A DNA stretch of 64,000 bases from an uncultured delta proteobacterium (GCA_963767925.1 CAVYGB010000010.1:128001-192000); one strand, 5' to 3'; positions 15,098-21,578 are shown, counted from the first letter of the stretch. Translations and numbers: made by a program. Notes: generated by a model not told the origin, from the sequence alone.

Positions 15098-17458
15098 ATG
15101 TCGCCCTGGGCTTTCTCGAAAACCTCCGCCCCAATGATTGGCTGTCTCGCCGCCCTGCTGGGCGCGGCGGGATGTAGCGAGAAGTCTGCCCCGGCCAGCA
15201 CCGGCCCGGCCGTCACCAGCACGGCCACCACCAGCGCCCCGGTTGCGCCCGACGAGCAGCCCGAGGGCCGCCCGAGCGCCCGCAGCCGGCTCAAGGGCGT
15301 GCGGCCGCTCGTCGTCGAGGCCCGCCGGGCCGAGCTCGACGTGGGCGGCATGTTCATCGACTTCGGCACCGCCGATCAGCTCAAGTACACCGCGGGCGGC
15401 TGGGGCAACGGCTGGGGCGAGCGGCGCACCGAGGGCGACGGGGGGACGACCTACGCCGAGGCGCGGGGCCGGACCCTCCCGGTCCGCCTGTTCCTTTACA
15501 AGGAGAGCGGCTTGCCCCGCCAGGTCGCGGTCCGGCTGCGGACGCGCGGCCCACCCCGCCAGGTCTCGCTGCTGATCGACGGCCAGCCGGTGGGCGAGGC
15601 CCGGGTGGGGCCGGCCTGGAGCACGATGAGCGTGGCCCTCGGTGCCGAGTCGATCCGCCTCGGGCCGGTGGAGCTGGCCCTGGTCTTCGATTCGCCTCCC
15701 GGGCGGGGCGGCCTCGACGTCGACTGGATGTGGCTGGGTCGCTCCCCGGACGGGGTCTTCCCCGAGGCCGGTTCCCGGGTGGCGCCGATGACCTTCGGCG
15801 ATGGCACCCGGCGGGCCCTGCTGGCCCCCACCCCGCGAAGTTATGCCTTCTACCTCGAGGTGCCGCCCCGGGCCTCGCTGGTGTTCGACTACGGCGGCGC
15901 CGCCGGCACCCAGTTCCTGGTGCGCGCGCGCATGGACCGGGGGGCAGGCCCCCGCATCGTCTTCCAGGGGAAGGCCCAGCCGGGGCGCTGGCAGGAGGGG
16001 GTGGTCGACCTGGGGCCGCTGGCCGGTCGGGCCATCAAGCTCGAGCTCATCACCCAGGGCTCGATCTCGGCCGGCTGGGGCGATCCCGAGATCATGGTCC
16101 CGCGCGACCCCGCCCCCCGGACCCCGGCGCCGGTCGCCACCCAGCGCAAGCCGGCCCGCAACGTGATCCTGCTGGTCATCGACACCGTGCGGGCCGACGT
16201 GTTCAAGCCCTTCAACAGCAAGAGCGCCGTGCGCACCCCGAACTTCGAGCGGCTGGCCGAGGAGTCGACCGTCTTCACCAGCGCCTACGCCAACGAGAAC
16301 TGGACCAAGCCGTCGGTGGCGACCATCCTCTCCGGGCTCTATCCGACCACCCACGGCACCAAGGAAGACGGCGACGTGCTCAGCTCGGACGCCCCCCTGC
16401 TGTCCGAGCACCTCAAGCGCAAGTCGTTCGCCACCGCCGCCTTCATCGCCAACGGCTACGTCAGCGACAAGTTCGGGTTCAAGCGCGGCTGGGACGCCTA
16501 CACGAACTACATCCGCGAGAACCGCCCCTCCGAGGCCCAGTACGTCTTTTCCGACGCGCTGGCCTGGATCAACAAGCACACCGACGATCGCTTCTTCCTC
16601 TACCTGCAGACCATCGATCCCCACGTCCCCTACGACCCGCCCTCGGAGTACACCCGCATGTACCACCCCGGCGAATACCGGGGGCGCTTCGGCCGTTCTC
16701 TCGATGGCATCGAGCAGCTCGACATCGCCAGCAAGAAGAAGCCCATGGACCAGGCGGACTGGGAGTACATCCGGGCGCTGTACGACGCCGAGGTCACCTA
16801 CCACGACACCCACATGGGCAAGTTCCTCGACCAGATCGACCAGATGGGCCTGCTCGACGAGACCCTGTTCATCGTGACCAACGACCACGGCGAGGAGCTC
16901 CGGGATCACGGCAAGCTGGGTCACGGCCACTCGCTGTACGATGAGCTGGTGCGCGCGCCCATGTTGATCCGCTACCCCTCGCTGTTCCGGGGCGGCCAGC
17001 GCGTCAGCGAGCCGGTCGAGAACGTCGACCTGTTCCCCACCGTGCTGGAGGCCCTGGGCCTCGAGCCGGTGTCCGACGTGGACGGCGTGTCGCTGCTGCC
17101 CATGCTCGAGGGCAAGCCCCCCTCGGTCCCCAGCTACGCCATCAGCGAGTTTCGCGCGGCTTTCCGCAGCGTGCGGCTGGGCCGCTGGAAGATGATCGCC
17201 GGCCAGGACGGCAACCGCCGCCTGTTCGACATGGAGATCGACCCCGCCGAGCAGGTGGACCAGGCGCGGCGGGCGCCCATCGCCAGCCGGATGTGCGAGC
17301 AACATCTGGCCGAGTTTCTGGCCAGCCCGGCCAAGACCCTGCGGTTCCGGGAGGCAAACGTGCCGCAACGCCGCTTCAAGCCAGGCCTGGTGCAGCAGGA
17401 TCCCGAGCTGCGCAAGCAGCTAGAAGCGCTAGGCTACTTCGGGGGCATGAAAGAATGA
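15098..17458 (+). CDS. Lipoprotein with N-terminal beta domains and a non-canonical sulfatase-fold domain
   Basis: Lipobox AAGC; VIDTVRAD, NWTKPSV in place of CxPxR, DPHVPY, NDHGE, GHGHSLY; C-terminal LRKQLEALGY. Start 15098 or 15134. Confidence 0.85.
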   Translation: MSPWAFSKTSAPMIGCLAALLGAAGCSEKSAPASTGPAVTSTATTSAPVAPDEQPEGRPSARSRLKGVRPLVVEARRAELDVGGMFIDFGTADQLKYTAGGWGNGWGERRTEGDGGTTYAEARGRTLPVRLFLYKESGLPRQVAVRLRTRGPPRQVSLLIDGQPVGEARVGPAWSTMSVALGAESIRLGPVELALVFDSPPGRGGLDVDWMWLGRSPDGVFPEAGSRVAPMTFGDGTRRALLAPTPRSYAFYLEVPPRASLVFDYGGAAGTQFLVRARMDRGAGPRIVFQGKAQPGRWQEGVVDLGPLAGRAIKLELITQGSISAGWGDPEIMVPRDPAPRTPAPVATQRKPARNVILLVIDTVRADVFKPFNSKSAVRTPNFERLAEESTVFTSAYANENWTKPSVATILSGLYPTTHGTKEDGDVLSSDAPLLSEHLKRKSFATAAFIANGYVSDKFGFKRGWDAYTNYIRENRPSEAQYVFSDALAWINKHTDDRFFLYLQTIDPHVPYDPPSEYTRMYHPGEYRGRFGRSLDGIEQLDIASKKKPMDQADWEYIRALYDAEVTYHDTHMGKFLDQIDQMGLLDETLFIVTNDHGEELRDHGKLGHGHSLYDELVRAPMLIRYPSLFRGGQRVSEPVENVDLFPTVLEALGLEPVSDVDGVSLLPMLEGKPPSVPSYAISEFRAAFRSVRLGRWKMIAGQDGNRRLFDMEIDPAEQVDQARRAPIASRMCEQHLAEFLASPAKTLRFREANVPQRRFKPGLVQQDPELRKQLEALGYFGGMKE

Positions 17459-19602: not shown

Positions 19603-21578
19603 TCCGCCGCCCGCCCCCCGCGCGACATAACGACCGGAACACGCGCCGCCGAGGTTTCGGGCCGCTGCCCCTGTGCCTGGCCGGCCTGGCGCTCGCCGGC
19701 GCGCTGGCCTGCAACGAGCAGGGGGCGCGCAAGGAGGCGGGCATGATCGTGCTGGGCATCGACGGCATGGACCTGCTGCTCACCCGCACCTATCTGCAGG
19801 AGCGGCGCCTGCCCAACCTCTCGGAGATCGCCCGCGCCGGATCGTTCGTCGAGCTGGGGACCAGCAACCCGCCCCAGAGCCCGGTGGCCTGGTCCCACTT
19901 CATCACCGGCACCACCTCGGCCGCTCACGGCATCTACGACTTCGTCCACCGCGACCCCGCGCAGATGTCCCCCTACCTGTCCACCTCCCAGGTCGAGGAC
20001 TCGGACCTCACGTTGAGCGCCTTCGGCTGGCGCCTGCCCCTCGGATCGCCCGAGATGAAGCTGCTGCGCGAGGGGGCACCCTTCTGGTCGCAGCTCACGG
20101 CGGCGGGCATCCCCGCCACCATCATGAAGATCCCCGCCCACTTCCCCCCTACCGAGGCGCCCGGGTCCCGGACCCTCTCGGGCATGGGCACCCCCGATCT
20201 GCTCGGCACCTACGGGACGTTCCAGTTCCTCACCGACGACCCCGCCTTCCTCGCGCGCAAGCTGAGCGGGGGGATGGTGCACAAGCTGCAACGCCGGGGC
20301 GCGGTCCTGGTGGCCGACCTGCAGGGCCCCCCCAACCCGATGAAGGTCACGCAGCAGCCGATGACCCTCCTGGTGGAGATCGCCCCCAACGCCGCCCGCA
20401 CGGCCGCCCTGGTGCGGCTGGCGGGGACCGAGCGGCTGCTGCGGGCGGGCGAGTGGTCGGACTGGGTGCCCATCGCCTTCAGCCCGGGGTCCCTGGGCTC
20501 GGAGGTGCCGGGCATGGTGCGGCTCTACCTCAAGTCGTTGACCCCCCAGACGCGCCTCTACGTCAGCCCGATCAACATCGACCCACGCAACCCGGCGATG
20601 ACCATCTCCTCGCCCTCCGAGTGGGTGCAGGAGCTGGGCGAGCAGGTGGGGCGCTTTTACACCCAGGGCATGCCCGAGGACACCAAGGCGCTCGAGAACG
20701 GGGTGCTGACTGACGACGAGTTCCTCACCCAGGCCGACCTCATCTTCGACGAGGAGCGCGCCATCCTGGCCAGGGAGCTGCAGGAGTTCAAGGGCGGGCT
20801 GCTGTTCCACTACTTCTCGGTGGTGGACCAGGTGAGCCACATGTTCTTCCAGTCCGCCCTGCCCAACCCCCCGCCCCGGCTGGCCCGCTACACGAAGGTG
20901 CTCCCGCGCATTTACGCCCAGATCGACGAGGTGGTCGGGAAGGTGCGGGCGGCAGTGGGCAAAGACACCGTGATCGTGGTGATGTCCGATCATGGCTTCT
21001 CCCCCTACAAGTGGAAGGTCAACCTGAACACCTGGCTGCAACGCCAGGGCTACCTGACCCTGCGGGAGAAGCCGGGCCCGGGGGCCCTGGGCCACATCGA
21101 TTGGAGCCGGACCCAGGCCTATGCCCTGGGCCTCAACCAGCTCTTCGTCAACCTGCGCGGGCGGGAGGCCGACGGCATCGTCTCGCTCGACGACCGGGGC
21201 GCCCTGCTCGACCGGCTGGCCCGCGACCTCGAGTCCTGGATCGACGACGTCTCGGGCGGGCGGGTCATCTCGGCGACCTTCCGCCCTTCCAGCAGCCGGC
21301 ACCCCGAGCGGGCCCCCGACATGTTGATCGGCTTCGCCAGGGGCTACCGCAGCTCGGACGCCTCCGCCACCGGGCTGCCGGAGCCGGACATGGTGTTCGC
21401 CAACAAGGACAAGTGGAGTGGCGACCACTGCATGGACCCCACCCTGGTGCCGGGGGTGCTGTTCTCCAGCCGCAAGCTCCGCGAGCGCCGGGCGTTTCTG
21501 GTCGACCTGGCCCCCACGATCCTGTCGTATTTCGGTCTGGCTCCGGCCAGTGGTACCGAAGGCAAGGCTCTGTTCTAG
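19599..21578 (+). CDS. Alkaline-phosphatase/NPP superfamily paralogue, predicted (Tat) lipoprotein
   Basis: TRRRGF followed by lipobox ALAC; LGIDG, PPQSPVAWSHFITG, DQVSHMF, SDHG, WSGDHC. Confidence 0.88.
   Translation: MIRRPPPARHNDRNTRRRGFGPLPLCLAGLALAGALACNEQGARKEAGMIVLGIDGMDLLLTRTYLQERRLPNLSEIARAGSFVELGTSNPPQSPVAWSHFITGTTSAAHGIYDFVHRDPAQMSPYLSTSQVEDSDLTLSAFGWRLPLGSPEMKLLREGAPFWSQLTAAGIPATIMKIPAHFPPTEAPGSRTLSGMGTPDLLGTYGTFQFLTDDPAFLARKLSGGMVHKLQRRGAVLVADLQGPPNPMKVTQQPMTLLVEIAPNAARTAALVRLAGTERLLRAGEWSDWVPIAFSPGSLGSEVPGMVRLYLKSLTPQTRLYVSPINIDPRNPAMTISSPSEWVQELGEQVGRFYTQGMPEDTKALENGVLTDDEFLTQADLIFDEERAILARELQEFKGGLLFHYFSVVDQVSHMFFQSALPNPPPRLARYTKVLPRIYAQIDEVVGKVRAAVGKDTVIVVMSDHGFSPYKWKVNLNTWLQRQGYLTLREKPGPGALGHIDWSRTQAYALGLNQLFVNLRGREADGIVSLDDRGALLDRLARDLESWIDDVSGGRVISATFRPSSSRHPERAPDMLIGFARGYRSSDASATGLPEPDMVFANKDKWSGDHCMDPTLVPGVLFSSRKLRERRAFLVDLAPTILSYFGLAPASGTEGKALF

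Follow-up and report, generated by a model that had tools for sequence, protein, structure and literature searches.

Why would one operon encode two enzymes of the same fold, one apparently anchored on the cytoplasmic side of the inner membrane and the other sent across it? The question is raised by a 64,000-nucleotide stretch of DNA from an uncultured delta proteobacterium (GCA_963767925.1 CAVYGB010000010.1:128001-192000), referred to as a whole as the window. Two adjoining plus-strand genes, A (17455..19602, 715 aa) and B (19599..21578, 659 aa), encode paralogues there. We consider it probable (about 0.6) that they belong to a conserved, undescribed membrane cassette linked to sulfation. A would work at the cytoplasmic face and B in the periplasm, the N-terminal module of A would be the cognate partner of a DUF106-like membrane protein, and A and B would act in turn on one substrate or carrier. 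The cassette would consist of A, B, a small ribbon-helix-helix (RHH)-like protein with a conserved tail, and a bacterial DUF106/Ylp1-like protein, accompanied here by a sulfatase and a sulfotransferase of the type that uses 3'-phosphoadenosine 5'-phosphosulfate (PAPS). Observed directly are that A and B are paralogues and keep their catalytic residues, that signals are conserved, and how the genes are ordered, co-occur and are related to known families; topology, signal cleavage, docking, chemistry and the order of action are inferred from these.

The paired enzymes and their fold

The first-pass annotation of this DNA had placed tandem paralogues of the alkaline phosphatase superfamily at 17455..21578. 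These limits proved to be those of exactly two genes, whose products both match PF01663 (121.6 bits for A and 95.3 bits for B; gathering cut-off 23). Gene A has ATGA start/stop overlaps at both ends, with an upstream sulfatase-family gene and with gene B. BLASTP aligned the two proteins over 637 residues at 37% identity (E 1e-124), and SPVAW, RLYVSPINIDP, SDHGF and WSGDHC appear in the same order in this alignment, in line with the four collinear motifs described earlier. In a phylogeny of 64 sequences (FastTree), a single branch with a support of 100 parts the A-type from the B-type clade, which makes the duplication an old one.

When 46 A-type sequences were aligned with 18 of the B-type, D88, S127 (in SPVAW), D447, H451, D509-H510 (SDHG) and H661 proved invariant. 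We take these residues to be the metal ligands and the hydroxyl nucleophile of the NPP enzymes. Because the catalytic residues are invariant across the alignment, both A and B look catalytically competent. The structural model of A (pLDDT 93.1) has an NPP-like core and a large beta-rich insert at residues ~150-375. Sequence search alone found no match for A in the PDB. Foldseek with the model returned Xanthomonas NPP as the closest solved fold (E 4.3e-13), followed by ENPPs, PhnA, SPAP and PafA, at 10-15% identity.

The core fold of A is common to NPPs and their relatives (Xanthomonas NPP 2gsn/7n1s, ENPP1/3/5/6/7, PhnA 1ei6, SPAP and PafA; PF01663; COG3379), with Foldseek E values of 4e-13 to 1e-9. 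A two-metal site with a hydroxyl nucleophile is likewise common to NPPs, A and B. The usual NPP nucleophile is a threonine. Differences from NPPs are a serine as nucleophile, a beta-rich insert of ~220 residues, and a paralogue pair that would straddle the membrane. Both A and B would be NPP-fold enzymes that use this Ser nucleophile on phosphodiesters or sulfo-esters. A literature search, with supplements outside its scope, returned nothing on the function of COG3379.

Predicted membrane topology

B is predicted from its sequence to be exported as a lipoprotein. Its signal (residues 1-37) carries RRRGF at 16-20 and a lipobox-like AGLALAGALAC that ends at Cys38, which bears out the RRxF motif and ALAC lipobox read in the first pass; the lipobox fits a relaxed pattern. 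Compared with the twin-arginine translocation (Tat) consensus S/T-R-R-x-F-L-K, the window protein has T-R-R-R-G-F without L-K. B adjoins A in 66 of the 80 related loci, and 59 of these orthologues could be classified. A lipobox is present in 39, a Tat signal with a clear RR[EQDR]F[LI]K-type motif in 8, and another hydrophobic leader, mostly Cys-ended too, in 12. None of the 59 is without an export signal.

In A, a signal-like n/h/c region starting MSRLFSPR and ending in AQA (residues 1-28, AQA at 26-28; 17455..17538) precedes YVGPGAG (residues 29-35; 17539..17559), a hydrophobic helix ending in WPF (residues 36-61; 17560..17637; helix 32-68 in the model) and a basic linker (residues 62-85; 17638..17709). 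The order is therefore h-region, AQA, YVGPGAG, a hydrophobic stretch to F61 and then R62-KLYRIITRKKPPRPPRIDR; the basic stretch after WPF reads RKLYRIITRKKPPRPPRIDR. Motif and helix together make 33 uncharged residues, and the run from the tyrosine to the first charge is exactly this long in 78/78 A orthologues with an intact 5' end. The 24 residues past it are rich in K/R (median 9, range 6-11) and poor in D/E (median 0, range 0-2) in the same 78 orthologues, a positive-inside signal. Because the uncharged helix is followed by this basic linker, A is predicted to have its N-terminus outside and its catalytic domain in the cytoplasm.

Two kinds of sequence variants agree with this prediction. 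In 14 of the 78 orthologues there is no room for a signal, and the start lies 1-10 residues ahead of the tyrosine (e.g. a single M before YIGPGAG). In a few A-type enzymes an AdoMetDC-like domain (PF02675, 30-34 bits) is fused ahead of the first hydrophobic segment, which would therefore require an N-in, loop-out, C-in arrangement. Since residues 1-28 of A resemble a standard signal peptide, they might serve as a normal export signal and leave both catalytic domains in the periplasm. We regard such a shared compartment as most improbable. In 78/78 orthologues, a second hydrophobic helix of 26 residues leads into a segment with 6-11 K/R and hardly any D/E, a combination that strongly signals stop-transfer and a positive inside, and both the orthologues that begin at or near the tyrosine and the cytoplasmic AdoMetDC-like domains fused upstream speak against export of the catalytic domain. 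Comparison of 59/59 classified B orthologues with an export signal and 78/78 A orthologues with the uncharged run and basic linker thus supports the placement of the two enzymes on opposite membrane faces that the first-pass annotation had proposed.

AdoMetDC-fused enzymes were noted at L002:7611-10064 and L003:7599-10061 and as the proteins P0094, P0103, P0107 and P0108. Loci L002 and L003 are without a B gene; A is directly followed there by the membrane protein and a sulfotransferase.

The tyrosine had also been expected to be conserved just after the signal cleavage site. Its conservation is clear: Y-[IV]-G-P-G-[AS]-G occurs in 119/119 listed relatives of A and in 78/80 A loci from several phyla (contig ends truncate the remaining 2), with Y29, G31, P32, G33 and G35 invariant. 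Ala precedes it at position -1 in 116/120 close homologues, 59/64 long-leader orthologues and 77/79 further sequences, whereas Ala at -3 is found in 116/120 close homologues and only 32/64 long-leader orthologues. The leader segment upstream varies in sequence among A orthologues. Because Ala dominates both positions in close homologues, a signal peptidase I site after AQA is likely in the window organism. The expected placement holds in part, because the 14 orthologues that start 1-10 residues before the tyrosine have no signal; we predict that it lies at or within 10 residues of the mature N-terminus and is not always residue 1. Nor is a Sec signal a trait of all A family members, given these 14 and the Gln at -3 in 21 of 64 long leaders.

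In the Acidobacteriaceae-labelled group L042-L072, the last leader residues before YIGPGSG form the His-rich stretch HHHPHAVQ[LF]A, again with Gln at -3. These ends would make a poor signal-peptidase site and possibly a metal-binding patch. Neither YVGPGAG nor YIGPGAG occurred among the literature matches listed.

A stand-alone relative of the anchor

The first-pass annotation had stated that AYxxPGxG with a transmembrane helix also occurs in stand-alone mini-proteins, and these do exist, as a large family. A word-indexed search for short relatives of A residues 22-80 gave one weak match of 84 residues (E 0.12). A hidden Markov model (HMM) scan of 1.84 billion representatives, seeded with this match, yielded 1,331 clusters at E <= 1e-3, and the best 150 are all 71-145 residues long and contain the module alone. 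Y-x-[GNS]-P-G-x-G follows a leader ending in A-x-A in 148/151 mini-proteins. Downstream of the motif come a helix, W-P-x-R, a run of basic residues and an acidic tail with a median of only 17 residues. The residues that are A-specific in the enzyme alignment, namely Y, G, P, G and G of the motif and Pro in WPxR, are the same ones that are invariant in the mini-proteins. The mini-protein profile (A4) matches the N-terminus of A with E 4.1e-11. None of 18 mini-proteins scanned matched a Pfam or NCBIfam model at cut-off. From these profile matches we conclude that the anchor of A is an autonomous module that also stands free as a widespread mini-protein, which is new here.

The Tyr motif is not a chance feature, because it is kept in 119/119 A relatives, 78/80 loci and 148/151 stand-alone relatives. 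Among all open reading frames (ORFs) of 81 loci, none but the A orthologues combines the motif with a transmembrane helix. When the window's genome was scanned for the motif in six frames, no stand-alone mini-protein was detected; it gave 6 regex matches, with a membrane helix in A alone. One 82-residue mini-protein (P0124 / P0273) is named 'threonine/homoserine/homoserine lactone efflux protein' in one source; the name was probably transferred because of a matching membrane helix.

The neighbouring membrane protein

A gene downstream of B (21920..22741, +) encodes a membrane protein with an immunoglobulin (Ig)-like domain between its second and third transmembrane helices (TM2 and TM3). When a profile of 39 orthologues (A2) was compared with all PDB sequences, the single match was MJ0480 (5c8j; E 3.2e-12), and the segments 9-118 (TM1-coiled-coil-TM2) and 245-271 (last helix) aligned collinearly. 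The model of the protein (pLDDT 93.7) has helices at 24-46, 49-68 with 73-117, and 250-264. A structural search of the whole PDB (VIA) ranked chain 8 of 7tut, a ribosome-multipass-translocon entry, at the top (Z 10.3 vs 7.8 for the next), and YidC reached Z 7.0. We take this chain to be TMCO1. Foldseek matched the Ig-like domain alone, with no match at E <= 0.001. A Pfam scan of the window protein gave no match, PF01956 included; a further lead (Atlas) pointed to PF01956. Profile and structure comparisons together identify the protein as a bacterial relative of archaeal MJ0480/Ylp1 (DUF106, Oxa1 superfamily).

From TM1 through the cytosolic coiled coil to TM2 and TM3, the protein is collinear with MJ0480/Ylp1, which belongs to the Oxa1 superfamily along with EMC3, TMCO1, Get1 and YidC. 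Unlike DUF106 members as described in the papers cited here, the window protein is bacterial, carries an Ig-like domain in its outer loop and is tied to one operon. DUF106 is described as archaeal and eukaryotic in the available parts of PMC5868721 and of the preprint 10.1101/2020.12.20.422553, and no bacterial DUF106 clade appeared among the literature matches listed.

The membrane protein tracks the A-type gene almost one to one in two phyla. Among 301 sampled genomes of the window's phylum, 25 have a strong match to the membrane protein, and 24 of these have an A-type N-terminus; the 25th (G298) has a contig-cut fragment only. No genome of the 301 has an A-type gene without the membrane protein, and 9 genomes with a lone module-less paralogue are all without it. 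In a second phylum, that of locus L018, the membrane protein was found in 58 of 201 genomes, an A-type start in 56 and both in 55. The exceptions are three genomes with only the membrane protein, G358, G377 and G415, whose A is partial, cut by a contig end or in one of 45 unlisted rows, and one genome with only a 1.3 kb fragment of A, G478. Another 69 genomes of this phylum have other COG3379 paralogues only and are without the membrane protein. These counts take in the unpublished genomes G352, G327 and G455.

We profiled the surroundings of the mini-proteins in a scan of metagenome contigs, which gave at least 517 confirmed sites, of which 80 loci were kept; a mini-protein ORF was called in 79. 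A DUF106-like gene (profile A2, E 1e-7 to 1e-19) lies directly downstream on the same strand in 68/79, mostly at -4 to +60 nt. Of the 11 loci without it, 7 have <450 nt downstream. Two genomes of the window's phylum, G049 and G136, also have such an abutting gene pair. They had suggested that the signal-less mini-proteins are the DUF106-paired ones; we rejected this, as leaders of 19-35 residues are present in most of the metagenome mini-proteins that are paired. At L162:4204-6921, directly after a mini-protein gene, an ORF of 906 residues matches the B-type profile, with a signal of its own, as well as the DUF106-like one, and may be a fusion, a missed stop or a frameshift.

The anchor could be no more than a generic tether, its tyrosine and Gly-Pro-Gly merely a tight turn or interfacial cap, with a functionally unrelated membrane protein next to it. 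Aromatic and Gly/Pro residues are frequent at helix ends, and the model of A has low confidence at residues 23-28. We nevertheless find such an ordinary anchor very unlikely, given that neither the motif nor the 33-residue length varies across phyla, that the same invariants recur in more than 1,000 mini-protein clusters, that a DUF106-like gene is adjacent in 68/79 loci, and that motif plus transmembrane helix is confined to A orthologues among the ORFs of the 81 loci.

We instead interpret the module (a usually cleavable signal, A-x-A, Y-x-G-P-G-x-G, a 26-residue helix, W-P-x-R and a basic linker) as a cognate partner, either subunit or client, of the DUF106-like protein, which would dock it at its membrane-thinning groove while the module holds A in its predicted N-out/C-in orientation. 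Known DUF106-type proteins have small membrane partners (EMC3-EMC6, Get1-Get2, TMCO1-C20orf24 and archaeal YidC-Elp1, in the available part of 10.1101/2020.12.20.422553), and by gene context alone the DUF106-like gene and its adjacent module or mini-protein can be likened to these pairs. EMC3-EMC6-type partners form a three-helix core, whereas the module would contribute one helix, or two with the leader.

As a client, the module would serve as an insertion signal for a dedicated Oxa1-type insertase that moves its short N-tail, and the two would then separate. YidC translocates the short N-tails of Pf3 coat and M13 procoat. The module resembles these proteins, as it comes in a procoat-like form (signal, A-x-A, N-out helix and basic C-side) and in a Pf3-like, signal-less form with a very short N-tail (14/78); unlike them, it has an invariant Tyr-Gly-Pro-Gly tip, no acidic N-tail and, in A, a 630-residue cytoplasmic enzyme. 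The co-occurrence of module and DUF106-like gene would fit this role, as would the insertion of simple few-helix proteins by Oxa1-superfamily members (available part of PMC5868721). A private insertase seems uneconomical for mini-proteins that are the module plus a short acidic tail. We hold a client role to be possible but the less likely of the two. YidC is presumably present in the window's genome too. We lean towards a stable subunit because the free mini-proteins carry nothing else to deliver.

The link with sulfation

The mini-protein loci often encode sulfation enzymes. A PF13469 sulfotransferase (77 bits) is present in 50 of the 80 loci, a membrane-anchored arylsulfotransferase (ASST; PF14269, 105 bits, N-terminal anchor) in 27, a B-type lipoprotein paralogue in 11 and a sulfatase-tetratricopeptide repeat (TPR) protein in 6. 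Two arrangements of these genes are met repeatedly, one running ASST, mini-protein, DUF106-like, sulfotransferase and the other B-type enzyme, sulfotransferase, mini-protein, DUF106-like. The window operon is the fused counterpart of these orders, with the module-plus-enzyme A, B, the small protein, the DUF106-like protein and the sulfotransferase. Its sulfotransferase gene (22738..23313, +), which overlaps the membrane protein gene by GTGA, encodes a PAPS-type enzyme (PF13469, 33.2 bits; PF00685, 31.1 bits; both above cut-off). Among solved structures, the sulfotransferase profile of the mini-protein loci is nearest to protein-tyrosine sulfotransferase (TPST) 1 (E 5.6e-11) and 2 (~1e-6), and the window-type profile (A6) to the phenol-sulfating SULT1 enzymes (E 2e-6). 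No ASST is among the six genes of the window operon, and the pairing of PAPS-type sulfotransferase and ASST is not found there.

Three loci without a DUF106-like gene (L105, L138 and L144) have a TPST-like sulfotransferase, and L105 and L138 also have an arylsulfotransferase. Because these loci keep the sulfotransferase, its link with the module may be tighter than that of the insertase in some lineages.

Gene context and distant homology also suggest a more specific scheme, a tyrosine sulfate relay. The tyrosine of the module would be O-sulfated by a cytoplasmic, PAPS-dependent TPST-like sulfotransferase, and moved to the periplasmic face by the DUF106-like protein. The sulfo-Tyr, being an aryl sulfate, would there be used as donor or substrate by a periplasmic arylsulfotransferase, or by B in the window. 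Both recurrent gene orders, the frequency of sulfotransferase and ASST genes and the TPST1 and SULT1 likenesses would fit. According to the available part of a 2026 review (PMC13426309), arylsulfotransferases are periplasmic, independent of PAPS and take sulfate from aromatic donors; their acceptors include tyrosine and peptides that contain it, but which acceptors most of them have in nature, and which physiological roles, is poorly understood. A precedent for loading and unloading a phenolic carrier comes from caprazamycin biosynthesis, where PAPS-dependent Cpz8 loads a phenolic pyrone carrier and ASST-type Cpz4 unloads it (available part of PMC4257720). PAPS-type sulfotransferase and ASST are likewise co-encoded in the mini-protein loci, around a candidate phenolic intermediate. 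Unlike in the Cpz8/Cpz4 system, this phenol would be a protein tyrosine on a membrane anchor, a membrane crossing would be implied, and the window has B and a sulfatase in place of ASST.

We treat the tyrosine relay as a tentative possibility. TPST sites are flanked by acidic residues, and the tyrosine of the module has no acidic neighbours. Once inserted, it would lie across the membrane from PAPS, so that reloading would need a putative flip or a single-use carrier. The missing ASST in the six-gene window operon and the scarcity of sulfotransferase genes near A speak against it as well, and the bias of solved sulfotransferase structures towards phenol and Tyr enzymes makes the structural likenesses less telling. 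If it operates, the relay would be a transmembrane sulfuryl relay and a possible natural donor for bacterial arylsulfotransferases. It would also realise the loader/unloader pair with a shared carrier that the first-pass annotation had suggested. That idea is circumstantially compatible with loci in which the module occurs together with a cytoplasmic sulfotransferase of the PAPS type and with a periplasmic ASST or B-type enzyme.

In the broader scheme that we prefer, a sulfation-linked cassette in which the module is paired with the DUF106-like protein, one substrate or carrier, sulfated or phosphorylated, would cross at the docking site and be acted on in turn by A on the inside and B on the outside. 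Several observations weigh against it. Only 15 of the 80 loci have a sulfotransferase gene within 8 kb of A, and the window enzyme did not join the mini-protein-locus sulfotransferase cluster: weak BLAST matches and no HMM match place it in a different subfamily. The DUF106-like proteins next to mini-proteins are only distant relatives of that of the window (A2 E 1e-7 to 1e-19; BLAST weak), and the family as a whole falls below the PF01956 cut-off, with weak matches in 4/39 members (best E 0.0018). Four metagenome loci (L105, L111, L138 and L144) have room downstream yet no DUF106-like gene, and in genomes of the window's phylum three stand-alone mini-proteins (L081, L083 and L092) have no DUF106-like neighbour within 1.5 kb. 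The Gln at -3 in 21/64 long-leader A orthologues makes a poor signal-peptidase site. Related genomes are also not independent, and the co-occurrence counts overstate the support.

These findings give the bacterial branch of the DUF106/EMC3/TMCO1 insertase family a function-linked context. They define a very common, uncatalogued mini-protein family and a 715-residue enzyme that uses such a mini-protein as its anchor. They also make two open questions concrete, with a defined peptide, tyrosine and enzymes: by which route sulfuryl groups reach the PAPS-free periplasm, and what periplasmic arylsulfotransferases naturally use.

Operon composition and neighbouring genes

The six genes of the operon abut or overlap in the order sulfatase, A, B, small protein with an RHH-like unit and conserved tail, membrane protein and sulfotransferase. 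The first (15098..17458, +) encodes a sulfatase-family lipoprotein (PF00884, 147.6 bits; start candidate MSPWAF...LLGAAGC), and its stop overlaps the start of A (ATGA). The small RHH-like protein (21607..21915, +) has an invariant L-[KR]-G-L-G-Y-[IL]-x tail (alignment A3) and a weak DUF7120 match below cut-off. Its GLGY-[IL]-x tail holds a second conserved tyrosine of the cassette, and in the window copy the RHH-like unit is repeated once more at the N-terminus. With the window counted, the membrane protein is present in 64/81 loci. Sulfatase homologues occur in 42 of the 80 related loci. Nothing on the four-gene cassette was found in the literature searched, within the same scope as above. 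Upstream and divergent from the operon lies an adenosine 5'-phosphosulfate (APS) kinase gene (14380..14916, -; PF01583, 191 bits), whose product makes PAPS; an APS kinase gene is found within 8 kb in 22/80 related loci.

Downstream of the operon, the window encodes a coiled-coil protein with an N-terminal membrane helix (23365-24084, -), with a sub-threshold likeness to the gliding protein GltJ (E 6.5e-5, 22 bits vs a cut-off of 450). Further genes upstream of the operon encode a second sulfatase-family protein (8945-11500, +; PF00884, 127 bits), CobT (13214-14350, +; PF02277) and a BrkB-family membrane protein (7960-9015, +).

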